Source: a virus (Duplodnaviria > Caudoviricetes). From it: a stretch of 42,585 nucleotides of DNA. The notes under the pieces are model-generated. The model saw nothing but the letters and a program-made list of their open reading frames with translations. It made no database searches and was not told the DNA's origin. Made by a program: the position numbers and the translations under genes. The stretch covers positions 1 through 42,585 of IMG/VR virus record IMGVR_UViG_3300032373_000784; one strand, given 5' to 3'. Of the stretch, positions 2,324 to 42,585 are shown piece by piece. Position 1 is the stretch's first letter, and the number at the start of each line of letters is the position of its first letter.

Positions 2324-3484
2324 TTAAGTGTTGTTCTCTTGTTCTCCTTCGAGGCGTTTAGTGAACGCCTTGCGCGCCATCTTTTTGGTGCGAACCATGT
2401 AGCGATCGATGATCTCTTCGACGGTCTTGAGTGAGTGTCCAGTGATTGATGCGATCAACTTGTTGTCGATTTCTTCTTCGGCCATGCGGGTGATTGCTGT
2501 GTGGCGCAAGTGCATGAACCAGAGCCCGCGGATATCTTGAGCGAGATCCATGTGCCCATCGATCTCGGCGAGCATCGCCGCCCAGGCGCGGATCTCGGCG
2601 AAGTCGTGGCGAAATGTGTCTTCGACGTAGGGCTGGCCGGTGGCTTCGTTGATGATGATATGGGTGCTGGTGACGGCTCGGGCTTTGGCGCGCTGCTTCT
2701 CCGCTTCCAGGCGCTCGACCAGGTGCGGTACCAGATCGACGGGCAACACGGTTTCGGCACCGGTCTTGGATTGTTTGACCTCAATCCCTTCGGTCGTGTA
2801 GCGGTCCCAGCGCCAGGCGAGGACGTCGCCCTGGCGTTGTCCGCACCATTCGTTGAGCATGACGGACGTGCCGATCGACCACCGCTCGGCCGCATCCGCT
2901 GCAGCGACCAGGTAATCCACTGCCTCGCGGCTCCAAATCTTGCCCTTCTTGGCGCTGTTGGTAAGCCTGATCTCGCGGGCTGGGTTGCTCTCAATCCAGT
3001 CCTCGCTGATGGCGAATTGGAGCAACACGCGCATCACGCGGATCGTGGCGTTGGCGGACGCCGGCGTTTTCGACATGGCTTGATAGAACGTTTTTATCCG
3101 TTTCGGCGTGATGGCTGCGACGGGTGCGCCGTCGCCCCAGGCCTCGATCTTGTCCAGGCACTGGTTGTATCCACGTTTCGATTTTTTGGCCAGGCGCGTA
3201 AAACTTACATCCTGACGGTAGGCATGGATCAGGGCGTTCATGGTGTGGGGCTTGGCAACGGGGCTGTTCGGCGAGTGGGTTTCTTCGTCTTTGCGCCAGG
3301 CATCGACGCGGGCATTGATCTCTTCGGCCTCGCGGATCGCGTCAACCTCGCGGCCAGTGTCTTCGGCCACGCGCACGTCTTTCCAGCCGGCTTTGCGGAG
3401 TGATGGGCTTGGTGCCCAGAAGTATCTGATTGTCCCGCGTCGGCCTGGCTTGGATACCAGGTGGCGGATTTTGATGCGTGCCAT
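2324..3484 (-). CDS. int: Tyrosine recombinase (phage integrase)
   Basis: Catalytic motifs GQRQGD, KT, HLRHT, TGH and final Y (DRY); adjacent to attL. Confidence 0.93.
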   Translation of the reverse strand: MARIKIRHLVSKPGRRGTIRYFWAPSPSLRKAGWKDVRVAEDTGREVDAIREAEEINARVDAWRKDEETHSPNSPVAKPHTMNALIHAYRQDVSFTRLAKKSKRGYNQCLDKIEAWGDGAPVAAITPKRIKTFYQAMSKTPASANATIRVMRVLLQFAISEDWIESNPAREIRLTNSAKKGKIWSREAVDYLVAAADAAERWSIGTSVMLNEWCGQRQGDVLAWRWDRYTTEGIEVKQSKTGAETVLPVDLVPHLVERLEAEKQRAKARAVTSTHIIINEATGQPYVEDTFRHDFAEIRAWAAMLAEIDGHMDLAQDIRGLWFMHLRHTAITRMAEEEIDNKLIASITGHSLKTVEEIIDRYMVRTKKMARKAFTKRLEGEQENNT

Positions 3485-4907: not shown

Positions 4908-5282
4908 TCAAGGCTTGCCGTCTTCGCTCGGGCCGTGGCCGGTCGCGCAATTGGACGTTTCCGCACGAAGTGCGAAGCGGTAGCCGGTGGCGATTTCGGT
5001 GATGATTGTGAGGCGGGTTGCTTCGAGGTGTTGTCTGAGCCTGCATATCTGCGCGCGGACGGTTTCTTCTTGTGGCCAATCGCGAAATCCGCAATAGCTG
5101 TGCATGATGGAGTTGATCGGTGCGCAGTTTGGGTATTTGTCGTACAGCGCCTGGGCGAGGTCGGCTTGGCCGCGGGTGATCTTAATCTCGCGCCCATCGA
5201 TGGCGATGCGGTTGAGCATTCTGAGCACGGAAAAGCCGTCTTGCTCGGCGCGTGGATTTGTTTTTGATGGGCTGTGGTTCAT
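4908..5282 (-). CDS. Stand-alone OmpR/PhoB-type winged-helix DNA-binding protein
   Basis: IDGREIKIT...TVRAQICRLRQHL...IITEIATGYRF matches the Trans_reg_C pattern; no receiver domain. Confidence 0.65.
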   Translation of the reverse strand: MNHSPSKTNPRAEQDGFSVLRMLNRIAIDGREIKITRGQADLAQALYDKYPNCAPINSIMHSYCGFRDWPQEETVRAQICRLRQHLEATRLTIITEIATGYRFALRAETSNCATGHGPSEDGKP

Positions 5283-5620
5283 GGCTCTACCCTTGGAAAT
5301 GGTGGGGCGGTTTTATCAAGGGCGTCGCGGGCCTGATAGAAGGCTGGCATCACTTCATTGGCGGCGTCGTATTCTTCGATCATGGCCTCCAAGGCTTTGC
5401 GCAGGATATCAATGTCGGTGCCCAATTTGACCAAGGTTCCGAGGGTTAACACTTTCACGCCGGCGGGGGTTTCTATGGCTGGTGGGTTCATTGCGCGAAA
5501 GGTCATATCCGTGATTGCTTTCTTTAGCCCCTCGATCGTATCTGCGGCTTCGAGCATCAAGGGTTCGGTGCGGGCGTTTCCTGCGCCATCGCGGCGCAAA
5601 CGATCTGTGATCTCGCTCAT
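5279..5620 (-). CDS. Phage hypothetical protein
   Basis: MSEITDRLR...LMLEAADTIE is a common phage small-protein N-terminus; 4-bp overlaps with both neighbours. Confidence 0.6.
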   Translation of the reverse strand: MSEITDRLRRDGAGNARTEPLMLEAADTIEGLKKAITDMTFRAMNPPAIETPAGVKVLTLGTLVKLGTDIDILRKALEAMIEEYDAANEVMPAFYQARDALDKTAPPFPRVEP

Positions 5621-10735: not shown

Positions 10736-11845
10736 ATGGCCAATCAAAGACGTGTTCACGATATCGGGGTGATCGTCGGCGGGCTTGAGGACAACATTTC
10801 GGCACTGTGTCGTGAGCTGTTCCCGGCCGGGGTGAAGGAAGGCAACGAGTACCGGGTTGGGTCGTTGGCTGGTGAAAAAGGGCGATCGATGGCGATCCAC
10901 GTCGGTGCCGGGCGACCTGGGGTGTGGTGTGATTATGGCGGGCGGACCGATGATCGCGGCGATGCGTTGGACCTGGTCGCCAAGGCATTGTTTCGCGGCA
11001 ACAAAGCCGAGGCGATCACCTGGGCCAAGGGGTGGCTGGGGTTGGATGCTTCCGATCCCGCGGGCCTGAAAACCCAGCGTCGCCGTGCCGAACAAAAAAG
11101 CCGGGCGCAGAAAGAAGGCTCGGGCCGCAACAAGAAAAAGGCTTTTGCGATTTGGCTGGCGGCTCAAGAAAAGCTCAAAGGCACACCGGCGGATTGGTAT
11201 CTCAAAGGGCGCGGCATCGATCTCTCGCGGCTGGGTTATCAGCCCCGCGCGTTGCGCTTTCACCCCGGCCTGGACAATTGGGAAGGCCTGGATCCCAAGC
11301 GCGATCAACCGCGCCGTTTGCCCGCCCTGGTGGCGGCGATCACCAACGCCAAGGGTGAAACGGTGGCGGTGCATCGTACCTGGTTGCAGCCCAGCACCCA
11401 GCCGGGGGTGTTTTGGCAAAAGGCCGATCTGAAAGATCCAAAAATGACCTTGGGCCGTTACGTCGGCGGTGCGATCCGCTTGTGGCGCGGCGAGGCGATG
11501 GACCCCAGCACCGGCGAGGTCAAACGCGCGCCCGCGCTGAAGGACGCCCCGCCGAGATCGAGCGTGGTGATCGCCGAGGGGATCGAGGACGGCCTGACCA
11601 TCGCCCTGGCCGCGCCCGAGTATCGGGTGTTGGTGGCGGTGTCGCTGGCGAACATGGGGTCGCTGGATCTGCCCGCGGCCATCGCGCAAGTGATCATCGC
11701 CGCGGACAACGACGCGCCCGGATCGCGTGCCGCCGAGCAGCTGGACCGGGCGGTTGCGCATTTTCAATCGCAGGGCCGAACCGTGCGCCTGGCGCGCGCG
11801 CCACAAGGTCACAAGGATTTCAACGATTTGGTGAAACATGGATAG
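10736..11845 (+). CDS. Phage DNA primase-like TOPRIM protein
   Basis: GDALDL N-domain, YLKGRGI, AVHRTWL, IAEGIEDG, IIAADND and KDFND motifs. Confidence 0.85.
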   Translation: MANQRRVHDIGVIVGGLEDNISALCRELFPAGVKEGNEYRVGSLAGEKGRSMAIHVGAGRPGVWCDYGGRTDDRGDALDLVAKALFRGNKAEAITWAKGWLGLDASDPAGLKTQRRRAEQKSRAQKEGSGRNKKKAFAIWLAAQEKLKGTPADWYLKGRGIDLSRLGYQPRALRFHPGLDNWEGLDPKRDQPRRLPALVAAITNAKGETVAVHRTWLQPSTQPGVFWQKADLKDPKMTLGRYVGGAIRLWRGEAMDPSTGEVKRAPALKDAPPRSSVVIAEGIEDGLTIALAAPEYRVLVAVSLANMGSLDLPAAIAQVIIAADNDAPGSRAAEQLDRAVAHFQSQGRTVRLARAPQGHKDFNDLVKHG

Positions 11846-11856
11846 GAGGACGCACG

Positions 11857-13140
11857 ATGTTTGAGTTTTTGAGGCGGCGTTATCGCCGCAAGTTGGTCGA
11901 CGAATTTATGTCGAAAGGTCAGGGTCCACATCAGGCGGTCGATGCGGCGAAGGCGGTCGATGCGTTCGTGCATGGTGATGCTGGGGATCTGGCTGTTCGG
12001 CATGGTCCGCAGTCGGTGCATTTTTGTGCGAATGAGTGGGAAGCAAAAGATGTTCTGGGTGGCGTGCCCGTGCCCTTCGTTCATCACGCCGATCTGGCGG
12101 AGTTTATCGCAAGTCAATCACCACCGTTGTCGCGGGCCGAAGGTGTTGACGATCCGCGCGGCCAGGATGGGCGCGATGAGCACGGCGAGCGGGAACAAGG
12201 TGAGGGGCCACAGCCCCGGCAGGGTGAAGCTGGCAAAAATGCACAGTCCGAGCAGGACGATCAGCGGTGCCGTGCCGAGATTTCCGAGGGTCCGGACGGC
12301 GAAGACGACGGGGCCGCCGAACATGGTGGCGGCGCGGATCAGACCGTAGAGTGCGAAGGCGAGGATGCGCATGCGCTAGAGGGTAGCACGCCGTCGGGTG
12401 AGGTCAATGTTTTCGCCGACGATCCGGTGCCGCCGCATGACCACGACAAAGGCGGGCGCATCAAGTGGACGGATGATCTGAACGCCTGGTTGGCGCGGCA
12501 CTGGACCGCGGGCACGGGATCTGCGCGCGAGATCGCCGATGCGTTGGGCATCGGCGAGGGCACCGTGTATCTGCGCTGCACCAAGACGCTCGGCCTGGCC
12601 AAGCGCGGCGCGGCGGCAATCCCGGTGGCGGACCCGGTGTGCGGCGGCGGGCGGTCGGCGGGATTTTCCCCGCAACCCGGCGATATGTTCGCCGCGACCG
12701 AGGTCGAGAAGATCAAAGACATGTATTTCCGCGATGCCGAGCCTGGGGCGATCGCGGCGACGTTGAGCTTGCCGCCGGCGGCGGTCGCGGAGCTGGTCGA
12801 GGACAAAGTTGCGCGGGGGATCTGGAAGCGCCCGCAAGCCTCGCCCGGTTTTCGCGTGGTCGATCATGACCTGGCGGACGCGGCGGACGATGCCCGGCCC
12901 AAGTCGGTGAGCGGCGAGAGCTCACGCGTGGTGCATCCGGACGATGAGGAAAACGAGACGGTCGCCGCGGCGATCCGTTACCTCGAAGTTGAGGGCATGC
13001 AGGTGCAGAAATTCAAGGGGCGGTACGACGTGCTGGAGGGGACGTCGTATCTGGAGGAATGCCTGAATGCGCAGGCGCTCATCGAATTCGCCAACATGCT
13101 GCGCATCGACGACGGGCTTGATCCGTTTGCAGCTGCATAA
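11857..13140 (+). CDS. Multidomain protein with GcrA-like HTH
   Basis: ATG after AGGAGG; WTDDLNAWLARHWTAGTGSAREIADALG...LGL resembles the GcrA N-terminal HTH; may actually be two genes. Confidence 0.6.
   Translation: MFEFLRRRYRRKLVDEFMSKGQGPHQAVDAAKAVDAFVHGDAGDLAVRHGPQSVHFCANEWEAKDVLGGVPVPFVHHADLAEFIASQSPPLSRAEGVDDPRGQDGRDEHGEREQGEGPQPRQGEAGKNAQSEQDDQRCRAEISEGPDGEDDGAAEHGGGADQTVECEGEDAHALEGSTPSGEVNVFADDPVPPHDHDKGGRIKWTDDLNAWLARHWTAGTGSAREIADALGIGEGTVYLRCTKTLGLAKRGAAAIPVADPVCGGGRSAGFSPQPGDMFAATEVEKIKDMYFRDAEPGAIAATLSLPPAAVAELVEDKVARGIWKRPQASPGFRVVDHDLADAADDARPKSVSGESSRVVHPDDEENETVAAAIRYLEVEGMQVQKFKGRYDVLEGTSYLEECLNAQALIEFANMLRIDDGLDPFAAA
12118..12372 (-). CDS. Nested antisense membrane protein (putative, leaderless)
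   Basis: 84 aa, mostly hydrophobic; TTGACC-N16-TACCCT with TG extension ending 7 nt before the ATG. Confidence 0.55.
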   Translation of the reverse strand: MRILAFALYGLIRAATMFGGPVVFAVRTLGNLGTAPLIVLLGLCIFASFTLPGLWPLTLFPLAVLIAPILAARIVNTFGPRQRW

Positions 13141-27217: not shown

Positions 27218-29301
27218 TGAAAGTCAGAACGTACCAGTCGCAAAAAGGCATCACGGCGCAAGGCTCGGCTGCACGCATGTCGGCTGGGGCGCTTACCGTG
27301 GCGAGCGGCGCCGCGGCGGATTTTGCCAACACCGCCGTGAACGTCACCAACGATGCGGTACAGCGCCAAAAAGAGGCCGATGATAACGCTTGGGTTTCCT
27401 CAACCACCGCCAGCGCGGCGAAGAATTGGGCCGAGCGCCTCAATCAATCGAAGCAATCGGCGCCCGAGGGTGCGGACGGTTTCGCCGGTGGCGTTGAAAA
27501 GGATTTTCAGGCTTATCGCTCCCAGATCATCAAGGATGCGCCGTCTCCGGAAGCGGCGCGGATGGCGGGGCAGCGCTTTGATCGTCTCGGCCTTTCGGTG
27601 TTTAACGAGGCTTTGACGTTTGAGGCCACCTCCAAACGCACCAAGCGCATGACGGACTTTGGCCAGGGCCTCAACGACCTGGCCAACGCGGCGTACGCCA
27701 GCCCCGGCCAAGAGGCGCAATTGATTGCCCAGGCGCAAGGCGACCTTATGGCCGCTGAAAATTCGTGGATGTTGCCCGGCGACGTGAGCGAACAGCGCAA
27801 GGCGATCCCCGGCAAAATCGCCGAGCAAGCCCTGCGTGGTCGCTTGGCGCAAGATCCGCAGGGCGTTCTCAAAGCTCTGGAAGGTGATCAAGATCCATCG
27901 GTCAATCGCCTGGATCCGGAGCGGCGTACGGTGTTGGCGTCGGCGGCGCGTGCCGAAATCGGGCGTCGGGCGATCGTTCGCAACGGCGAGCGTAAGGGTT
28001 TGGAGACGCGGCTCAAGGATCTGGGCGGCGTGGTTGAGGCTGGTTTCGATCCCGGCACGGATCGGCTGCAGGCGCTTGAGGCAGACATCGCAAAATTCGG
28101 CGATGGTGCGCTCAGCGCGGACGTGCTGGCGATGAAAAACAGTCTTGGTTTTCAGGCTGAAATTCGCGCTTGGACCCCGACGATGTTGCAAAACTGGGTC
28201 AACCAAGAGCACACGCGGCTGAACAAAGGCGACGTGTCCTCGACGGAGGCCGAGCGGGTCGATCTGGCTGGAAAGATTTTGAGGTCGATGCAGTCCGCGA
28301 TCAAGCAAGATCCGCTCAGCTGGGCGGCGCGCGCGGGTGTGGCCGAAATCAAGCCGGTGGCATATGCGGGGCAAGATGCGGTGCAAAGCATGCAGTCGCG
28401 GCGTCAAACGGCGTTGCACCTGGCTGAATATTACGGCACCGCGCCGCGGTTGTTGACCGATGAGGAAGAGGTGCAGCTTAAATCAAAGCTGGAAGGGGCC
28501 AGCGCCGACGAGCAGGTTGCTTTGGCCTATTCGTTGAATGAGGGTTTTGGCCCGCAAGCGTCCAGCGTGTTCCAGCGGATTTCTGGCGACGATCCTTTAT
28601 TCGCGCATGCGGGTGGGCTGGCGGCGCTGGGCACGGCCCAGGCGGGCACCGCGCGCGATGTTTTGTTTGGGCGTCAGGTGTTGAAGGCCGGGAACAAGGT
28701 TTTGCCGCCCGCCATCGACATGAACGATTGGACCACCGACGAGCTGGGCGCGGCATTGTCCGAAACGCCATCGACGCGCGGCGCGGTGGTGGAAGCCGCC
28801 AAGGCGATTTATGCCGCAACATTCATGCGGCGCGGCGGCAGTGCGGACATCGAAGATACTTATTTCACCGAGAGTGACGAGGATCTGTGGCGCGAAAGTG
28901 TCCAGCTTGCCGCGGGTGGTGTGCGCGATAGCGCCGGTGAAATGCGCGGCGGCATTGGCGAGTGGAATGGCCAAAACGTGCTGCTGCCAAACGGTGTGCG
29001 TCAGTCGGATCTCAATCATCTGCTGAACATTGTCGAGGACGCGGACCTTGTCGCCCTGGGTGGCGGTGTTCATGGCGATGGTCAGCCGTTCACGGTCAAG
29101 GATTTCAAGGACGCCCGCTTGGTCGATTACGGCCATGGGCAATACATGATCGATATGAGCGGCGACGGGGTTGAGTTTATCCGCGGCGATGGCCCGAACG
29201 GGTACTTTGTGCTCGATGTTTCAGAGCTGGGCAAAGTGATGATGGCGCGGCGCAAAGGCGTTGAGGTGGGCGCGCTCGATGGCGCGGGGGGGGCGAATTG
29301 A
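27217..29301 (+). CDS. Internal virion/ejection protein
   Basis: 694-aa alpha-helical Ala-rich protein in the ejectosome gene block. Confidence 0.65.
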   Translation: MKVRTYQSQKGITAQGSAARMSAGALTVASGAAADFANTAVNVTNDAVQRQKEADDNAWVSSTTASAAKNWAERLNQSKQSAPEGADGFAGGVEKDFQAYRSQIIKDAPSPEAARMAGQRFDRLGLSVFNEALTFEATSKRTKRMTDFGQGLNDLANAAYASPGQEAQLIAQAQGDLMAAENSWMLPGDVSEQRKAIPGKIAEQALRGRLAQDPQGVLKALEGDQDPSVNRLDPERRTVLASAARAEIGRRAIVRNGERKGLETRLKDLGGVVEAGFDPGTDRLQALEADIAKFGDGALSADVLAMKNSLGFQAEIRAWTPTMLQNWVNQEHTRLNKGDVSSTEAERVDLAGKILRSMQSAIKQDPLSWAARAGVAEIKPVAYAGQDAVQSMQSRRQTALHLAEYYGTAPRLLTDEEEVQLKSKLEGASADEQVALAYSLNEGFGPQASSVFQRISGDDPLFAHAGGLAALGTAQAGTARDVLFGRQVLKAGNKVLPPAIDMNDWTTDELGAALSETPSTRGAVVEAAKAIYAATFMRRGGSADIEDTYFTESDEDLWRESVQLAAGGVRDSAGEMRGGIGEWNGQNVLLPNGVRQSDLNHLLNIVEDADLVALGGGVHGDGQPFTVKDFKDARLVDYGHGQYMIDMSGDGVEFIRGDGPNGYFVLDVSELGKVMMARRKGVEVGALDGAGGAN

Positions 29302-32300
29302 GTATCTTCGTCGATCAGAAAGACGCCACCACGGCGCTGCAGGACCGATCCTCTCAGGGCGCACGCACGGGTTTTGTTGAAAACTTCTCTGCGGCTTTGG
29401 ATACAACGGATCTGTCGGGCAGTTCTATTTCTGAGAAGGTCAATCTGGCCGAGGCTTACGATCCGATGATCGCGGCGCTCAACGAAGGCCGTTCAAAACG
29501 CCAACAGTTCGCCAATCCGTTTAGCCGCACGATCAGCGACCCGGTGCGCGGCCCGTCCTGGCGGGCTGGTTTTTCGTCGGATGATCTTGAAAAGCGCATT
29601 TGGGCGGAAATCGATGCGCGGCGCGCGGTTGATCCGGCTGCATTTCCTGATCTGCCCAAAAATCGCGATGCCATGCGGGAAAGCATTTACAAAACCGTTC
29701 GCGATGCAGAGGCCAAAGCGAACAAGGTGGGCGCATCCGCGAGCACTTCCGGCGTTCTTGGGCAATTTGCCGGAACGGCGGTCGGCGTGATGAAAGATCC
29801 GCCGGTTGCCATCTCGACCATGTTCGGTGCTGGCCCGGCGGCGTCGATCGCGCGCACGGTTTTGCTTGAGACGTTCATCGGCGCCGGGTCTGAGGCCTTG
29901 GTGCAGCCTGATATCCAGCGTTACCGCGTCAAGGCCGGGCTTGATCCCAGTGATCCATTGAAAAACATCGCCATCGCCGGTGCGGCGTCAGGTGTATTGG
30001 GCGGTGTTGTAAAGGGTGGTGGGCGCGTCGCCGGGCGTCTTGCCGGTGCTGGTAATGTGGTGCGTATGAGCAATGAAAAATTGCTCAAGACCTTTGATGA
30101 CCTGATTAAAAAGCCCACCGCTGAGCAGCGTGTGGCGCGGGACACCATCGCGGCCGAGATCGATCTGGCCAAGGACAATCCCCTTGATGGTCGTGGCGGG
30201 CGATCCGAACACCGTGCCCGCACGGCGGAGGCGATCCAGGCGGCCGAAGATGGCGCTATGGTGTCCATGCAAGACCGCCCCGCTGCAGATTTGAAGCCGC
30301 GTGTGGGCGATGATGTCGATAACCTCGACGGTCTGGTTTATGCGTTCAAGCCCGATGAGCTTGAGGTCGATGCCAAGTTGTTTCAGTTCAAGGAAGGCGG
30401 CGATCAATTCGGCGTGACGGATCGTCTGCAGGGCGTCGATACCTGGGATCCGGTCAAGGCTGGCCAGGTGCTGGTGTATGAATTCGCCGACGGCAAACGG
30501 TTCATCGCCGATGGCCATCAACGTCTGGGATTGGCGCGGCGCATTCAGGCGCAGGGCGATGGGCAAGATGTGCGCCTGATCGGCCAAGTGATCCGCGAAA
30601 GCGATGGCATGAGCCCGGAAATGGCCCGCGTGGTGGCGGCGATGAAGAACGTCGCTGAGGGATCGGGAACCGCCATCGATGCCGCCAAGGTTCTGCGCGT
30701 CGATCCCCGGCGGATCGGTGAGCTGCCGCCGCGCTCTCAACTGGTGCGCCAAGCCCAGGATCTGGTCAACCTGTCCGATGATGCTTTCGGGATGGTGGTT
30801 AACGAAGTGGTGCCCGCACACTTCGCCGCGGTGGTCGGTCGCTTGATGCCGGGCGATGCGCACATGCAGGCGGCGGCGTTGGACGTTCTGGTTAAAACCA
30901 GCCCAGAAAATCTGGTGCGGGCCGAGGCGGTCGTTCGTCAGGTGCAGAATATCGGCACGGTCAGCGAAAAGCAGATCGGTTTGTTTGGTGAGGAAATCAT
31001 CACCAAAAGCCTAATTGTCGAGCGGGCCAAGATCTTGGATCGAGCCATGAAGCGCCTGCGCAAAGACAAGGGCGTGTTTAAGAACCTGGTCGCCAATTCC
31101 GGCGATATCGCGAAGGCCGGCAACCGCCTGGCCGACGCCGAAAATCTGAAAAGGGCCACAAATGATGAAACGGCACTCCAAACGCTCCAAACGCTCGCCA
31201 ACCGCAAAGGCCCCCTCTCAGACGCTCTTGAAGGCGCCGCCCGGCGGGCCGCCGAAAGCGGAAGCTTCTCCGACGCCACAAGAGAATTCGTCGGCGCTGT
31301 CCGAGACGCAGCTTCGCGCGGCGATTTTGAAGGGGTATCAATTGGCCGAGGCGGGGGCGCTGAACATGTTGAGCCACAAACGCCAATCCGTCCAGGCGAA
31401 GAACAGGCCGACTTAGGCGGCTTTTCAGAGCCCGCTGGGGTGGCGGCAGAACAGCAGGCCGCGGCGCTTGAGCGTGTGGTGCGCGATGTGTTCGAACTCG
31501 ATGTGCCGGGGCGCGATCAACCGTTGGTGCTCGATGATGCGGTGGCGGTTCACCCAGGCACCGGTGAGGGCATCGTTACCGCCATGCGCCGGGCTGAGGC
31601 GATGCCCAAAACCCACAAAATCACGACGCCCGAACGGGTTCGCTTGCGCCAGCAAATTGCCGCGGATCTATACGGTGCCGGTGCAGCCCGCCAAGATTTC
31701 ACCGTCGATATTGTTCTGGGCCCGCCGGCCGCCGGTAAAAGCATGTTTTCCGATCCGCTGGTTGCTGAACGCGGCGCGTTGCTGATCGATAGCGATTTGG
31801 CCAAAGAAGTCTTGCCGGAATTCGAAGGCGGGATCGGCGCTCACGCTGTGCACCTTGAAAGCCGAATGATCGTTGAGGGTGATGTGTTGGCGCGTGCCTT
31901 GGCGCGGGGAGATAATATCGTGTGGCCGATGGTGGGCGGGGATCTGGCCAACCTTGAGGCTAAAATAGATTTGCTTCGCGCGGCGGATTATGACGTCAAT
32001 GTACACTTGGTCGAGGTGCCGACCGAGGTCGCCATCGAACGCGCGATTGAGCGTTTTCGCTTGACCGGACGCTTGGTTTCGCCGCAATATGTATTGGAAG
32101 TTGCAGACAACCCCGTACGCACCTTCGATGAGTTAATCAAAAGGGGTGATATCCATGAGCACTCGCATTACTCAAACGACGTCCCGCAAGGGTCTCCGTT
32201 ACGACTTGTCCGCGATCAAGGATCTGCCGACCTACGACCTCGAAAAGGAAGGCCAGGAGATCCCGCTGAACGCGATGCAACGCGTTCTGGACAATCTGAG

Positions 32301-32534
32301 CCCGCAAGACCGGGCCAAGCGTCAGGCGATGAAGGCTCGAAATCAGTCCAGCCGGACGGACAAACCGGCGGCCTAGAGCCGTCTCTCGACCCATCCCATG
32401 AAATCCCTGTAGACGTTGCCGTAAATGAAAACGGTGACGTCATTGCGCGCACCCGTCCGTTGGGCGAGGTGCTTGATGAGCTTGAAGCCGAGGCGACCTT
32501 CCTCGACGATTTGGAAGGAGGGTGTCTGAAATGA
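29298..32534 (+). CDS. Polyvalent internal virion protein with ParB/Srx-like and zeta-toxin-like kinase domains
   Basis: Gly/Ala-rich N-region; FIADGHQR (ParB/Srx); GPPAAGKS, IDSD, ERAIERFRLTGRLV (zeta-like P-loop kinase). Confidence 0.75.
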   Translation: MSIFVDQKDATTALQDRSSQGARTGFVENFSAALDTTDLSGSSISEKVNLAEAYDPMIAALNEGRSKRQQFANPFSRTISDPVRGPSWRAGFSSDDLEKRIWAEIDARRAVDPAAFPDLPKNRDAMRESIYKTVRDAEAKANKVGASASTSGVLGQFAGTAVGVMKDPPVAISTMFGAGPAASIARTVLLETFIGAGSEALVQPDIQRYRVKAGLDPSDPLKNIAIAGAASGVLGGVVKGGGRVAGRLAGAGNVVRMSNEKLLKTFDDLIKKPTAEQRVARDTIAAEIDLAKDNPLDGRGGRSEHRARTAEAIQAAEDGAMVSMQDRPAADLKPRVGDDVDNLDGLVYAFKPDELEVDAKLFQFKEGGDQFGVTDRLQGVDTWDPVKAGQVLVYEFADGKRFIADGHQRLGLARRIQAQGDGQDVRLIGQVIRESDGMSPEMARVVAAMKNVAEGSGTAIDAAKVLRVDPRRIGELPPRSQLVRQAQDLVNLSDDAFGMVVNEVVPAHFAAVVGRLMPGDAHMQAAALDVLVKTSPENLVRAEAVVRQVQNIGTVSEKQIGLFGEEIITKSLIVERAKILDRAMKRLRKDKGVFKNLVANSGDIAKAGNRLADAENLKRATNDETALQTLQTLANRKGPLSDALEGAARRAAESGSFSDATREFVGAVRDAASRGDFEGVSIGRGGGAEHVEPQTPIRPGEEQADLGGFSEPAGVAAEQQAAALERVVRDVFELDVPGRDQPLVLDDAVAVHPGTGEGIVTAMRRAEAMPKTHKITTPERVRLRQQIAADLYGAGAARQDFTVDIVLGPPAAGKSMFSDPLVAERGALLIDSDLAKEVLPEFEGGIGAHAVHLESRMIVEGDVLARALARGDNIVWPMVGGDLANLEAKIDLLRAADYDVNVHLVEVPTEVAIERAIERFRLTGRLVSPQYVLEVADNPVRTFDELIKRGDIHEHSHYSNDVPQGSPLRLVRDQGSADLRPRKGRPGDPAERDATRSGQSEPARPGQASGDEGSKSVQPDGQTGGLEPSLDPSHEIPVDVAVNENGDVIARTRPLGEVLDELEAEATFLDDLEGGCLK
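31162..31416 (+). CDS. Overprinted small ORF (+1 frame) inside the virion protein gene
   Basis: 84 aa; main frame shifts to rare codons over this stretch; amphipathic LSETQLRAAILKGYQLAEAG helix. Confidence 0.4.
   Translation: MMKRHSKRSKRSPTAKAPSQTLLKAPPGGPPKAEASPTPQENSSALSETQLRAAILKGYQLAEAGALNMLSHKRQSVQAKNRPT
32155..32376 (+). CDS. Overprinted small ORF (+1 frame) at the end of the zeta-like domain
   Basis: 73 aa, ATG preceded by AAGGGG; host-like codons while the main frame uses tta/cga/cta/agg/aga. Confidence 0.6.
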   Translation: MSTRITQTTSRKGLRYDLSAIKDLPTYDLEKEGQEIPLNAMQRVLDNLSPQDRAKRQAMKARNQSSRTDKPAA

Positions 32535-38199: not shown

Positions 38200-38544
38200 A
38201 TGGAATTGCAATGGTGGATTGCCGCAGTTGAAGTGCCGATATTATTGGCGTTGGTGGGGTGGGTTTATAGGATGCGCGCCGGTCTTGAGGAGAAGCTTGA
38301 AGCGCGCGATGAAAAGCGATCGAGGGATCGTGATCAGATCTGGAAGGGCATTCGCAGCGTGCAAAGCAACTTAGAGGCCTACAAGCTCGATGTGGCCCGG
38401 CAGTATGCCTCGGTCGACCACCTGAAAGACGTTGAGGATCGGATCGTCAAGGCGCTGGAAAAGCTCGCCGATGAAATGGGGCATTTTTCGGCAGTGATCA
38501 GTCGCATGCAAGGGCAGAACGATGTTGTTCGGCCTGGTGAGTAA
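38200..38544 (+). CDS. Membrane-anchored coiled-coil protein (lysis module)
   Basis: N-terminal TM followed by a coiled coil. Confidence 0.6.
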   Translation: MELQWWIAAVEVPILLALVGWVYRMRAGLEEKLEARDEKRSRDRDQIWKGIRSVQSNLEAYKLDVARQYASVDHLKDVEDRIVKALEKLADEMGHFSAVISRMQGQNDVVRPGE

Positions 38545-38550
38545 TGGGAA

Positions 38551-38775
38551 ATGATGATGGAAGATTTCGTTCTGTGGGGGCAGGTGTTGAAGCTGCTGGG
38601 TTTGTTGATCTCAATATCGGCCCTGGTTTACTGGCTGCGTTTTCTTGATCGACGCGCTGGTGTCGATTTTAAGGAGTTCTTTAATGATCTCAAAAATGAT
38701 CCGCAGGCTGCTGCTCAGTATCTTGGCTACCGTTTCCTTGGTGCCTGTGTCCTCATCGGCCTCGCCCTTTTCTGA
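38551..38775 (+). CDS. Putative holin (2 TM)
   Basis: 74 aa, two hydrophobic segments, overlaps the endolysin. Confidence 0.6.
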   Translation: MMMEDFVLWGQVLKLLGLLISISALVYWLRFLDRRAGVDFKEFFNDLKNDPQAAAQYLGYRFLGACVLIGLALF

Positions 38776-39262
38776 TCGCTACGATCTGCAGATCCGTGCG
38801 GCCGTGCGGGATTACTGGCCAGCCTATCCGTATTGGAGGGCCTGGAAAGCCCAGTTGTATCAGGAAAGCCGCTTGGATCCCGGCGCGGTTTCTCCTGTGG
38901 GCGCGCAAGGCTTAGCTCAGTTCATGCCGGGAACCTGGCGGCAGGTATCAGCCGAGCTCAAGCTTGGAGAGGCAAGTCCTCACACCGATATCGCGATTTC
39001 GGCTGGGGCTTTCTACATGGCCAAACGGCGTAGCGGTTGGTCGTCGCCACGCCCCGAGGCGGATCGCCATCGCCTGGCGGCGGCGAGCTACAACGCAGGT
39101 TTTGGAAATTTGCTTAAGGCGCAAAAGGCATGTGGCGACCGGAGCTTGTATGTCGAGATTATTGCCTGCCTGCCTGAGATTACTGGCCAGCACTCAGCTG
39201 AAACGATCAGCTATGTGCGGCTTATCTGGAAGTGGTGGCGAATGATGGAGGCCGGATTATGA
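38684..39262 (+). CDS. Endolysin, SLT-type lytic transglycosylase with signal peptide
   Basis: QES catalytic motif, AVSPVGAQGLAQFMPGTW, ASYNAG, ETISYV; start after AAGGAG. Confidence 0.88.
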   Translation: MISKMIRRLLLSILATVSLVPVSSSASPFSDRYDLQIRAAVRDYWPAYPYWRAWKAQLYQESRLDPGAVSPVGAQGLAQFMPGTWRQVSAELKLGEASPHTDIAISAGAFYMAKRRSGWSSPRPEADRHRLAAASYNAGFGNLLKAQKACGDRSLYVEIIACLPEITGQHSAETISYVRLIWKWWRMMEAGL

Positions 39263-39723
39263 AGGCAATAGCTGAAATGTTGGGTGGGGTGGCTTTTGGT
39301 GGCGTTCCATTGCGATTGATCCTGATCGGTCTGGCGGCGGTTGCGGCCTTGGGTTTATGGCTCTACGTCGGCCATCTGCAGGATGAAAATAATCGCCTGC
39401 GGGGTGATTTGGCGGTCGCGCTCGATGCGGCAGAGCAGAACGTGAAGGCCTTGGCGGCGGCAAATAGACACACCGTTAGCGTGATCAATGCGCTGACGGC
39501 CGAGCGTGACGCTTTTGCGGCGCGCGTAAAGCAACTCACAAAGATTAGATCGGAGGTTAATCATGCCCCGCAAAGTGACGATGGTCCTGTCGCCCCTGTT
39601 CTTGCTCGCGTTCTTGACAGCTTGCGAAACGCAAAGGCTGGTGCCGGTGGTGAAGGTGGAAAAGCACCAGGTGCCGGCCAGCCTGTTGACTTGTCCGTTG
39701 ACGCCCTCGCCGCCGGTGGCTGA
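39259..39723 (+). CDS. Inner-membrane spanin (Rz-like)
   Basis: Single TM plus periplasmic coiled coil after the endolysin. Confidence 0.75.
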   Translation: MKAIAEMLGGVAFGGVPLRLILIGLAAVAALGLWLYVGHLQDENNRLRGDLAVALDAAEQNVKALAAANRHTVSVINALTAERDAFAARVKQLTKIRSEVNHAPQSDDGPVAPVLARVLDSLRNAKAGAGGEGGKAPGAGQPVDLSVDALAAGG

Positions 39724-39835
39724 GACGCAGAGATCCGTCGCTGTTTATGTTTTGGATTTGTGGGAAGCGGCCGAAGAGTGTAGCCAAAAGATGGTCCAGG
39801 TGCGGCGTCTGGTCGCGCCGATTTCAGGGCCATAA
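39581..39835 (+). CDS. Outer-membrane spanin lipoprotein (Rz1-like)
   Basis: Lipobox LTAC, Pro-rich VPASLLTCP; overlaps Rz in another frame. Confidence 0.8.
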   Translation: MVLSPLFLLAFLTACETQRLVPVVKVEKHQVPASLLTCPLTPSPPVAETQRSVAVYVLDLWEAAEECSQKMVQVRRLVAPISGP

Positions 39836-40489: not shown

Positions 40490-42585
40490 ATGTTAAGTCG
40501 TCGCCAGTTTTTGACCACCACCGCTTTGGCGTCCGTTGGGACTTTTGCCGCTCAGACAGCGCTCGCGCAGTTTGTCGATATGACCGGCATCATCAGCGGT
40601 GTCGTGTCGTCCGCCATCAGCAGCGCCATCAGCGCCAACGTTCAAGAAGTTCTCGGCGCGACCATGTCCGTGGCGCCTGAAAAAGTCTCCGTGATGACTG
40701 GCGTTGCGGTCACAAAAATGGGTAACGCGTCTACGCCATCGCGCATGGTGACAAGCCATGATGATGGCTCGCTGAGTCTTTGGGATATGCGCGAAGGTCG
40801 CCAGATCAAACGGCTTAAGAATTTACATGACGGCCCGGTGAACGCCGTGAGCCTTTCCGAAAACGGGGCTGTCGCCGTGACCGCCGGACGCGACGGCAAG
40901 GCCCAGGTGGTCAGCAGCGCCACGGGTGCGGTGAAGGCCACGTTGACGAGCGCTGGGGCGACGGCGGCGACCGTCGTTGCGGTGTCCGATTCAGGCGACA
41001 CGGTCGTAACCGGCCATGACGACGGCAGTGTGCGTGTTTGGGACGCCAAAAGCGGCGAAGTCGTGTCGCTGTCCAAACCATCCAACGACGCCATCGGCGC
41101 GGTGGCTTTGTCCAAAGATGAAACCAAGGTTCTGGTCGGCGACGCCAAAGGCAAAGTCGTTACTTCTGACGCCAAGACCGGTGAAGCGGCCCAGAAAATT
41201 GCGCAGGCCCATGGTAAAGCCGTGACTTTCATCGAAGAAAGCCCATCGGGCGACGGTTTTGTTACCGCTGGCGCCGATGGCATGGTCAAATCGTGGAAGA
41301 CCGATGCGAATACGGCGGATAAAGAATTGAAACTTGACGCCCCTGTTACGTCTGCATCGCTTGACCCCAAAGGGGATCGTTTGGCGGTCGGTGACGACAG
41401 GGGCGGCGTTGCGCTTGTGGACCTGAAACAAAGCAGGGTCAGCGCGACCGCTGAGGGTGCAAAAGCGCACGTCGGTGCGGTGGCGTTTGGCGCCGGCGAC
41501 AACGTGGTCCACACGCTGGCTGAAGATGGCCTCATGAACGTTGTCGATGTGAGTACGAAAAAACAAACCGCGCGCGTGGTGGCGACCACCGACGGCTGGG
41601 CCGCGGTGGACGGCGAAAGCGGCGCGTATGTCGGTGATGGCGATGCGCTGGCGGCAATCGAGTGGGGCGCTGAAGACATGTCGTTCGAACTCGACCAATT
41701 CGGCGAAAGTCACTATGAACCGGCTGTGCTGGCGCTGGCGTCCGAAGGCCAAAGTGTCGAGCCCGTCACCACCGCTACTGAGCAAGCGCCGAAACTGTCC
41801 GTTTCGTTCCATACCCCGCCCATCGTGGTGATCGCCAAACCGGAAGAAAACGCCTCGTCCGACAGCGAAGCCTATGAGTTGTTTGTCGAAGCGGGCAACC
41901 TGGGTGGCGGCATTCAAGAAATACGTTTATTCCACAATGATCGCTTGGTCGCCAAAGAGGTTCCAGGCGACGCGGACAAAGAAACCTATAGCCACACGTT
42001 TGAGGTCAAGCTCACGCCCGGCGTAAATAAGTTTCGCACCATCGCCATGAGCCGCGACATGATCGAAAGCAAGCCCGCTAAGATCCAGGTCGCCTATACG
42101 GGGGCGGAGCGCAAAAGCACGTTGCACGTCGTGACCATCGGCATCAACGCCTATCGCAACCCGGCGCTGGCGTTGAACTACGGCGTGCCGGACGCGCTGG
42201 GGATCGAGCAGTTCTTCGCCTCTCAGCCGAAAACCTTGTTCAAAAACATTAAGACCTACAAGGTTCTCGATAAGCAAGCGACCAAGCCCGGTATCCAAAA
42301 GGCCTTGGCGAATTTGAAAGGCATTTCGTCTGATGATGTGTTGGTGGTGTACCTCGCCGGTCATGGCGATTCCATAGGCGATACGTGGTACTTCATACCT
42401 TACGATGTGGTCTATCCCGAACGTGAAGATCATGTTCGCGAAAAAGGCATCACGTCACAAGAACTGGAAGCCTGGGTCAACGAAGTGCCCGCGCAGAAAG
42501 TCGTGATGCTGATGGACGCCTGCAAATCCGGTGCAGCGTTAACCCGCACCCGCGGTTTTGAAGAACGCAAGGCGCTGAGCCGACT
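40490..42585 (+). CDS. Tat-exported WD40-repeat / caspase-like (peptidase C14) protein, 3'-truncated
   Basis: MLSRRQFL twin-arginine signal; WD repeats (GHDDGSVRVWD); YLAGHG and MDACKSG in the same frame; absent from the ORF track because it runs off the window. Confidence 0.85.
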   Translation, partial: MLSRRQFLTTTALASVGTFAAQTALAQFVDMTGIISGVVSSAISSAISANVQEVLGATMSVAPEKVSVMTGVAVTKMGNASTPSRMVTSHDDGSLSLWDMREGRQIKRLKNLHDGPVNAVSLSENGAVAVTAGRDGKAQVVSSATGAVKATLTSAGATAATVVAVSDSGDTVVTGHDDGSVRVWDAKSGEVVSLSKPSNDAIGAVALSKDETKVLVGDAKGKVVTSDAKTGEAAQKIAQAHGKAVTFIEESPSGDGFVTAGADGMVKSWKTDANTADKELKLDAPVTSASLDPKGDRLAVGDDRGGVALVDLKQSRVSATAEGAKAHVGAVAFGAGDNVVHTLAEDGLMNVVDVSTKKQTARVVATTDGWAAVDGESGAYVGDGDALAAIEWGAEDMSFELDQFGESHYEPAVLALASEGQSVEPVTTATEQAPKLSVSFHTPPIVVIAKPEENASSDSEAYELFVEAGNLGGGIQEIRLFHNDRLVAKEVPGDADKETYSHTFEVKLTPGVNKFRTIAMSRDMIESKPAKIQVAYTGAERKSTLHVVTIGINAYRNPALALNYGVPDALGIEQFFASQPKTLFKNIKTYKVLDKQATKPGIQKALANLKGISSDDVLVVYLAGHGDSIGDTWYFIPYDVVYPEREDHVREKGITSQELEAWVNEVPAQKVVMLMDACKSGAALTRTRGFEERKALSR

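Follow-up and report, generated by a model that had tools for sequence, protein, structure and literature searches.

In IMG/VR record IMGVR_UViG_3300032373_000784, a tailed-virus sequence of 42,585 bases that was analysed at full length and is called the window below, a gene of the internal-virion (ejection) block (29298..32534, plus strand) encodes a multidomain protein of 1078 amino acids (aa). Near the end of this gene, a zeta-like P-loop kinase domain is followed by a 73-aa open reading frame (ORF) in the +1 frame, ORF B (32155..32376, plus strand). The question raised by this locus is whether ORF B is a gene and, if so, what its product does next to such an enzyme. A previous interpretation, made from the letters alone and referred to here as the sequence-only reading, had taken it for an antitoxin gene overprinted on a virion gene. 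Our answer is that ORF B is almost certainly a real nested gene, to judge from its coding signature and conservation. The preferred reading, to which we assign a probability of about 0.6, is that it encodes the cognate inhibitor of a predicted virion-delivered kinase, and that the two may form a swappable enzyme-plus-nested-inhibitor cassette.

Coding evidence for ORF B

ORF B lies entirely within the 1078-aa gene. Examination of the sequence agreed with the earlier description: an ATG at 32155, preceded at a distance of 8 nucleotides by a Shine-Dalgarno (SD)-like AAGGGG (32141..32146, plus strand), opens a +1 frame of 73 aa that ends at a TAG. The SD duplex (−7.9 kcal/mol) has an identical value in the closest relative, locus L096, whose main protein (P0005) is 74% identical to that of the window.

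A codon model built from 12 of the window's other genes gave ORF B 0.56 bits per codon in the +1 frame, against −0.42 for the main frame over the same stretch. As an in-sample reference, 461 windows of 73 codons were taken from the training genes; all scored at least 0.11 in the coding frame and at most −0.18 in the +1 frame, and the ORF B scores in both frames lie outside this range. Among the 17 ATG-started shifted-frame ORFs of at least 60 aa in these genes, only ORF B and a second nested frame, ORF A (0.29), had positive scores. The six rare codons singled out by the sequence-only reading account for 13 of the 74 main-frame codons over ORF B, compared with 20 of 952 upstream, in keeping with its view that typical codons are found in the +1 frame and rare codons in the main frame.

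The main frame over ORF B had also been described as a linker, which is accurate for the last ~50 codons only. These are read through by an R/G/P/S-rich linker (32232..32400, plus strand), whereas codons 1 to ~22 coincide with the two final beta-strands of the kinase (180-185 and 195-199 of the structure model, or main residues 954-959 and 969-973). The N-terminal ~22 aa of ORF B are shaped by these strands, and are followed by an aromatic-acidic motif (YDLE) and by two predicted helices (38-48 and 50-68) of low confidence, as the monomer model reached a predicted local distance difference test (pLDDT) score of 62.

Comparison with L096 pointed to selection on the +1 frame. The relative retains the SD, ATG, TAG and 73-aa length of ORF B; in ORF A, too, start, stop and length are unchanged. 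Main-frame third-position divergence between the two loci was 0.42 in the kinase core and 0.52 in a ParB-like region further upstream, and only 0.19 in ORF B and 0.22 in ORF A. Over ORF B, identity was 51/73 in the +1 frame and 47/73 in the main frame; over its last 50 codons, 32 and 26 residues, respectively, were identical. Codons 24-73 include 27 changed codons, of which 9 are synonymous in the +1 frame and 3 in the main frame; read as linker, 24 of the 27 alter the residue. Suppressed third-position divergence, codon bias and conservation thus bear out the earlier claim that selection acts on the +1 frame.

One could argue that there is no second gene, and that the open +1 frame is a by-product of linker composition. 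In fact, the +1 frame stayed open in 84% of synonymous recodings of the main frame (the SD was matched in 15%), and +1 ORFs of at least 60 aa are common in these genes. Openness alone is therefore uninformative in the window, and the case rests on codon bias and conservation. Low third-position divergence and codon bias, together with the fixed start column, the SD excess and the peptide motif found across the kinase family (see below), make a compositional by-product highly improbable. ORF B has its own start, SD and stop inside another ORF, and both frames are under selection. A contig from a second study is identical over 31974-32390, which indicates that ORF B is not an assembly frameshift, and no letter variants were found in three DNA runs.

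Searches by similarity did not assign ORF B to any family. Neither ORF B nor ORF A had a Pfam, PHROG or NCBIfam match; a direct homologue search with the ORF B sequence found none; the ESM Atlas gave no usable match for either ORF, with low recognition; and a PDB sequence search with an ORF-B profile returned chance matches only. An 85-aa antisense ORF (32137-32394) was considered as a gene and rejected, as a stop interrupts it in L096.

Conservation beside the kinase and exchange of the slot

To survey the kinase, 174 loci were fetched (the best 80 of 144, 14 of 14 and the best 80 of 140) and grouped at 90% identity into 90 clusters, of which 88 were kept after removal of 2 partial ones. A locus scan with the single kinase sequence alone had found no loci. 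A +1 ATG occurs at one alignment column in 60/88 domains, and two codons later in 29/88. Stops in the +1 frame vanish just past the start column, with none in profile columns 180-204 across the 88 domains. Over a fixed window of 50 codons, the +1 frame is open in 80/85 domains (3 contigs were too short), compared with 5/88 and 11/88 in two kinase core controls, 13/34 further downstream and 11/85 in the +2 frame. Hence, lack of conservation beside homologous zeta domains, which the sequence-only reading had named among the outcomes that would speak against it, was not what we found.

The signals of initiation were also examined. Where the main residues permit a T-ending codon that makes the ATG, it is used in 60/61 cases (36.1 expected), while the control gave 458/773 (392 expected). 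An SD of −5 kcal/mol or stronger combined with at least 40 codons was found in 69/85 assigned ORFs and in 15/458 other +1 ATGs. In 15 disjoint pairs of loci, third-position divergence was 0.425 in the core, 0.23 in the nested ORF and 0.443 past the nested stop. ORF-B-like peptides have a median length of 63 aa and occur in records from four phyla, within carrier polyproteins of varied architecture. The aromatic-acidic motif is present in 42/77 members of the ORF B family (shuffled mean, 6.3). When the ORF-B profile was matched to separately called proteins, 28 of 29 matches were proteins of 44-98 aa, and the remaining one was a spurious repeat protein.

In 19 clusters the kinase lies at the end of the protein, and 12 of these 19 have the same ORF as a conventional downstream gene that overlaps the kinase gene; L018 is an exception, with a separate 58-aa gene downstream. 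The tree requires at least 7 switches between the terminal and internal states. This arrangement bears on a further explanation, namely that the +1 frame is read by programmed frameshifting to give the kinase an alternative C-terminus and release a shorter product. Frameshift products are known in T7-like virion genes, and a +1 frame open right at the end of the domain would suit such a mechanism. However, the +1 frame opens ahead of the last two strands of the fold, the ATG and the SD are under selection, and terminal kinases have the same ORF as a separate gene. Frameshifting is, on these grounds, most improbable. In halovirus HVTV-1, an acidic +1 ORF of 39-45 aa lies behind the zeta domain of gene 115, under an R/G/S linker (L177:2222-2359); its SD is weak by a bacterial measure.

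ORF A (31162..31416, plus strand; 84 aa) lies behind a conserved region made of a domain with a ParB-like motif and a helical part (aa ~345-690; 30330..31370, plus strand). This region matches phrog_10691 (E 4.8e-61), and relatives of it are encoded on 125 viral stretches. A Pfam search of the main protein gave no match there; the label is our own assumption, made from the motif ADGHQR. Codon scores over ORF A were 0.29 in the +1 frame and 0.11 in the main frame. The +1 ATG of ORF A lies at main residue 623 (22/31) or 622 (7/31), and the frame is open over 50 codons in 30/31, compared with 3/31, 4/31 and 3/30 upstream. The peptide is more conserved than ORF B, with 46% mean column identity in its C-terminal part, and carries a conserved C-terminal helical motif, LSxxQLxxAISxGxxLAxxDALSML. 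ORF A accompanies the ParB-like/helical domain regardless of the presence of the kinase. Orthologues of the main gene were fetched via the ParB-like region alone (the best 80 of 125), yielding 32 clusters, and ORF A was matched in 27/32 of them. Altogether, sequence comparison indicates that ORF A and ORF B are both conserved and under selection, and the repeated layout of domain and nested ORF noticed in the sequence-only reading stands.

The same orthologues permit a comparison of loci with and without the kinase. An ORF-B-like +1 ORF was detected in 6/6 clusters that have this kinase and in 0/26 that lack it (2 of them truncated), although the ORF-B profile was built from kinase-linked ORFs and the 6 positives are, to the detriment of our reading, partly circular. 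Where the kinase is absent, its slot is empty or occupied by another domain. An ART-like domain fills it in L200. In L221 it holds a zeta domain of another clade, with a 60-aa +1 ORF of its own at main residue ~1260 (SD, −6.0 kcal/mol). In 10 clusters the slot domain has Tas1, a toxin that synthesises (p)ppApp, as its best solved relative (E 2.8e-17), and behind this Tas1-like domain 10/10 clusters have a nested ORF on the opposite strand, 65-82 aa long and preceded by a strong SD, compared with 3/21 others. These ORFs, all on the minus strand, lie at L185:4833-5033, L256:4827-5021, L253:4833-5027, L244:4884-5111, L231:4740-4940, L227:5142-5369, L234:5229-5429, L197:4803-5048, L204:4797-5042 and L196:4932-5165; L196 has a second antisense nested ORF at 5271-5492. 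An alignment of the Tas1-linked ORFs shows shared F, G, W and P positions, and 10 proteins called as separate genes match this family. The ORFs drew no useful match from Pfam or PHROG, and a PDB sequence search with their profile gave chance matches only, Tis1 not among them, which is compatible with a shared fold. We consider them a candidate new immunity family.

Two predictions of the sequence-only reading fared well in this comparison: that a survey of virion genes would find +1 ORFs together with the toxin domain, and that the pair could be swapped as a cassette, since the slot is taken by another enzyme with its own nested partner. The claim that each effector travels with a nested partner was too wide. 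In a generic nested-ORF scan of 67 genes, which performs poorly at low guanine-cytosine (GC) content, ART-PolyVal and LPD38 domains had no nested ORF. The scan gave 32 passes in the +1 frame and 1 in the +2 frame, mostly the kinase-linked ORF. Nested +1 ORFs with good coding scores were also seen away from the kinase in giant polyvalent genes (L104, residues 384 and 457; L054, residue 903; L049, residue 1048).

Kinase activity, inhibition and the alternatives

The kinase domain (aa 775-978; 31620..32231, plus strand) matches PF06414 over aa 803-952 (E 7e-12; 45.6 bits against a cut-off of 22.3). Modelled alone, it reached a pLDDT of 94. The best fold match was zeta (1gvn; Z 19.2, root-mean-square deviation 2.5 over 197 residues), and other top structural matches included 3q8x, PezT (2p5t; Z 17.9) and AvrRxo1 (4z8q; Z 15.6). 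The Walker A Lys and the catalytic Asp of zeta, K46 and D67, are equivalent to K814 and D833, and K814, D831, D833, R915, R919 and R925 are all retained in the window. Across the family the Lys is found in 87/87 domains, and both Asp and two lid Arg in 88/88. With a zeta fold and the Lys and Asp kept, the domain is predicted to work like a zeta kinase. The term "zeta-like" used in the sequence-only reading is thus apt for fold and catalytic residues, but does not extend to the residues that bind uridine diphosphate-N-acetylglucosamine (UNAG). The set formed by T118, R120, T128 and E100 in zeta (PMC3062530) is not reproduced: E116-G-T118-G-R120 reads P-M-V-G-G in the window (P877, V879, G881), and E100, which corresponds to E860, is Glu in only 22/88 of the family.

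If ORF B is the inhibitor of this kinase, the late mRNA would be translated in both frames, and the ORF B peptide would bind the kinase through its aromatic-acidic motif and helices and inhibit it in the producer cell. The polyprotein would then be packaged and injected without the peptide, so that the kinase would become active in the newly infected cell, upon a small-molecule or nucleotide substrate that is probably not UNAG as zeta binds it. A toxin-then-immunity pair may fit in a virion gene in this manner: the immunity gene would require just one linker that stays open in the main frame, so that enzyme and partner could move as one cassette. Consistent with such a pair, ORF B is short, sits in tight linkage with the enzyme gene and is inherited together with it.

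A number of observations weigh against this reading. In the kinase, the E116 position is Pro in 87/88 and the T118 position is Val in 80/88; given that T118V abolishes the toxicity of PezT (PMC3062530), canonical UNAG phosphorylation by the window kinase is unlikely. PezT-Mtb, on the other hand, is toxic though UNAG residues are absent (PMC10532202). ORF-B-like peptides are very divergent (18% mean column identity). Only 8/15 pairs had a higher identity in the +1 than in the main frame, and under a cross-locus model only 36/64 nested ORFs had the higher codon score in the +1 frame; both weak results are as expected under constraint on both frames or at low GC. Because the 88 clusters share ancestry, their counts overstate independent events. 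A clade of C-terminal kinases (L040, whose kinase is fused to a Phage_portal_3 domain, L046, L053, L059 and L078) keeps the catalytic residues, with a credible partner in at most 1-2 members, and no nested partner was found at the zeta domains of cyanophage PSS2 and Bacteroides phage DAC19. Above all, ORF B overlaps the last strands of the kinase, so that physical linkage alone gives co-occurrence. Co-occurrence is evidence of shared inheritance, not of inhibition, and leaves room for a chaperone or an unrelated role.

The first of these roles is that of a kinase partner that is not an inhibitor, such as a folding chaperone, a packaging adaptor or an activator within the ejection protein. It fits all the data on conservation and co-occurrence, and the domain ahead of ORF A has no demonstrated toxic activity. 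Arc1 itself, the partner of AvrRxo1, was originally described as a predicted chaperone (PMC4938570). Yet the partner of the Tas1-like domain is encoded antisense, an arrangement better suited to immunity that is expressed separately than to a chaperone made by co-translation, and the kinase domain models confidently on its own. The ORF B family also diverges fast around a short conserved motif, a pattern typical of antitoxins. We therefore regard a chaperone or adaptor as unlikely, if the most serious competitor. A job unrelated to the kinase, for instance as a small anti-defence or host-takeover protein inherited through the overlap only, is less likely still. Overlapping genes would be hard to separate by recombination; nevertheless, start column, length and motif are kept across varied architectures and four phyla, and the ORF is kept in none of the 26 orthologues that lack the kinase.

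As to how an inhibitor might be deployed, the sequence-only reading had suggested protection of the lysogen from an internal promoter, for which we found no support. Two sigma-70-like sites were found (0.6 ± 0.8 expected); the plus-strand match at 31887-31916 was weak (9/12 consensus) and was rejected, and synonymous change showed no dip upstream of the ORF B SD, this site included. Protection of lysogens seems more plausible for the antisense partners than for ORF B, as they need a transcript of their own.

A wider and more tentative interpretation, which we hold at somewhat less than even odds as a whole, is that phage ejection polyproteins consist of toxin-immunity cassettes plugged in one after another, with immunity genes that systematically escape annotation. 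Each enzyme domain would have its inhibitor gene in the linker that follows, in the +1 frame for the zeta-like kinase and the ParB-like domain and antisense for the Tas1-like synthetase; G/R/S/P- and S/T/P-rich linkers would be the shadows of such genes, and the kinase would represent a subfamily of zeta that acts on a new substrate at the time of infection. If so, it would be understandable how phages can build enzymes that may be toxic to the producing cell into the interior of virion proteins, and why many zeta-like domains appear as orphans without antitoxin; a 2023 review clustered the genes upstream of zeta-like domains (PMC10532202). Three new small-protein families would become candidate enzyme inhibitors, and a nested gene behind a domain might serve to spot active effector domains. 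Annotation with one ORF per locus misses such genes wherever they are nested.

Setting of the gene and comparison with known systems

The window is a complete-looking virus record with an integrase gene (2324-3484) and, by PHROG search, a T7-like virion module. The neighbours of the main gene match PHROG internal virion, head, tail and virion structural families. The window is thus a temperate T7-like podophage whose main gene belongs to the ejection gene block, and presence of the main protein in the virion is inferred from gene position. Relatives bear LPD38, ART-PolyVal and ddrB-ParB domains, and one homologue has PF18819; the main protein itself has the zeta domain and the presumed ParB-like motif. 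Elsewhere in the window, a lysis-like block (38200-39835) contains a transglycosylase-like ORF (38645-39262) and then an ORF (39232-39723) overlapped by another (39563-39835) with a lipobox-like signal, which we take to resemble an Rz/Rz1 spanin pair. The long ORFs at 11413-13140, 885-2042, 40642-41679 and 40991-41917 had no match in PHROG at a threshold of E 0.01.

Epsilon/zeta and PezAT (1gvn, 2p5t; PMC3062530, PMC10532202) share with this locus the zeta fold, the P-loop Lys, the catalytic Asp and a small adjacent partner gene. Their antitoxin gene lies upstream, whereas ORF B is downstream and nested, without an epsilon or other Pfam match; the kinase is here a domain of a 1078-aa virion-block protein, and the UNAG contacts T118 and R120 are not kept. 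AvrRxo1-Arc1 (4z8q; PMC4938570) resembles it in having a zeta-like kinase in a delivered protein and an antitoxin gene downstream. Arc1, however, is encoded by a separate gene of 81-121 aa with a KExFD...ExxYY motif that is absent from ORF B, and AvrRxo1 is delivered by type III secretion.

Among phage proteins, the MuF toxins of temperate phages (PMC5576092) are virion-associated proteins with a variable enzyme domain, and a small putative immunity ORF follows 89.4% of 191 toxin genes. In MuF proteins the toxin extends the C-terminus and the small ORF follows as a gene of its own; the window instead has an internal enzyme, a nested partner and, as carrier, a T7-like internal virion protein, in which Pfam detected no MuF domain. 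The words "zeta" and "nested" are absent from the main text of that paper. Polyvalent proteins (Iyer et al. 2017, PMC5512222) are injected by phages and combine several domains, among them zeta-like kinase, DdrB-ParB and RelA/SpoT, and weakening of the cell wall has been proposed for their kinase; the words "overlap" and "linker" are absent from the main text, the supplements being outside the comparison. We found no report of nested partner or antitoxin genes in virion polyproteins in a search that left most subscription papers, and those supplements, outside its scope. In phage lambda, Rz1 is a same-strand, out-of-frame gene wholly inside Rz, and the two products act together. The nested gene described here differs in its location at an enzyme-linker junction and in recurring per enzyme cassette, in sense or antisense.

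Hence, both the toxin-then-small-ORF order (MuF, PMC5576092; AvrRxo1-Arc1, PMC4938570) and the presence of zeta-like kinases in polyvalent proteins (PMC5512222) were already known. What our sequence comparisons suggest as new is a partner gene nested within a virion gene, behind an internal enzyme domain, with one such gene per enzyme cassette.

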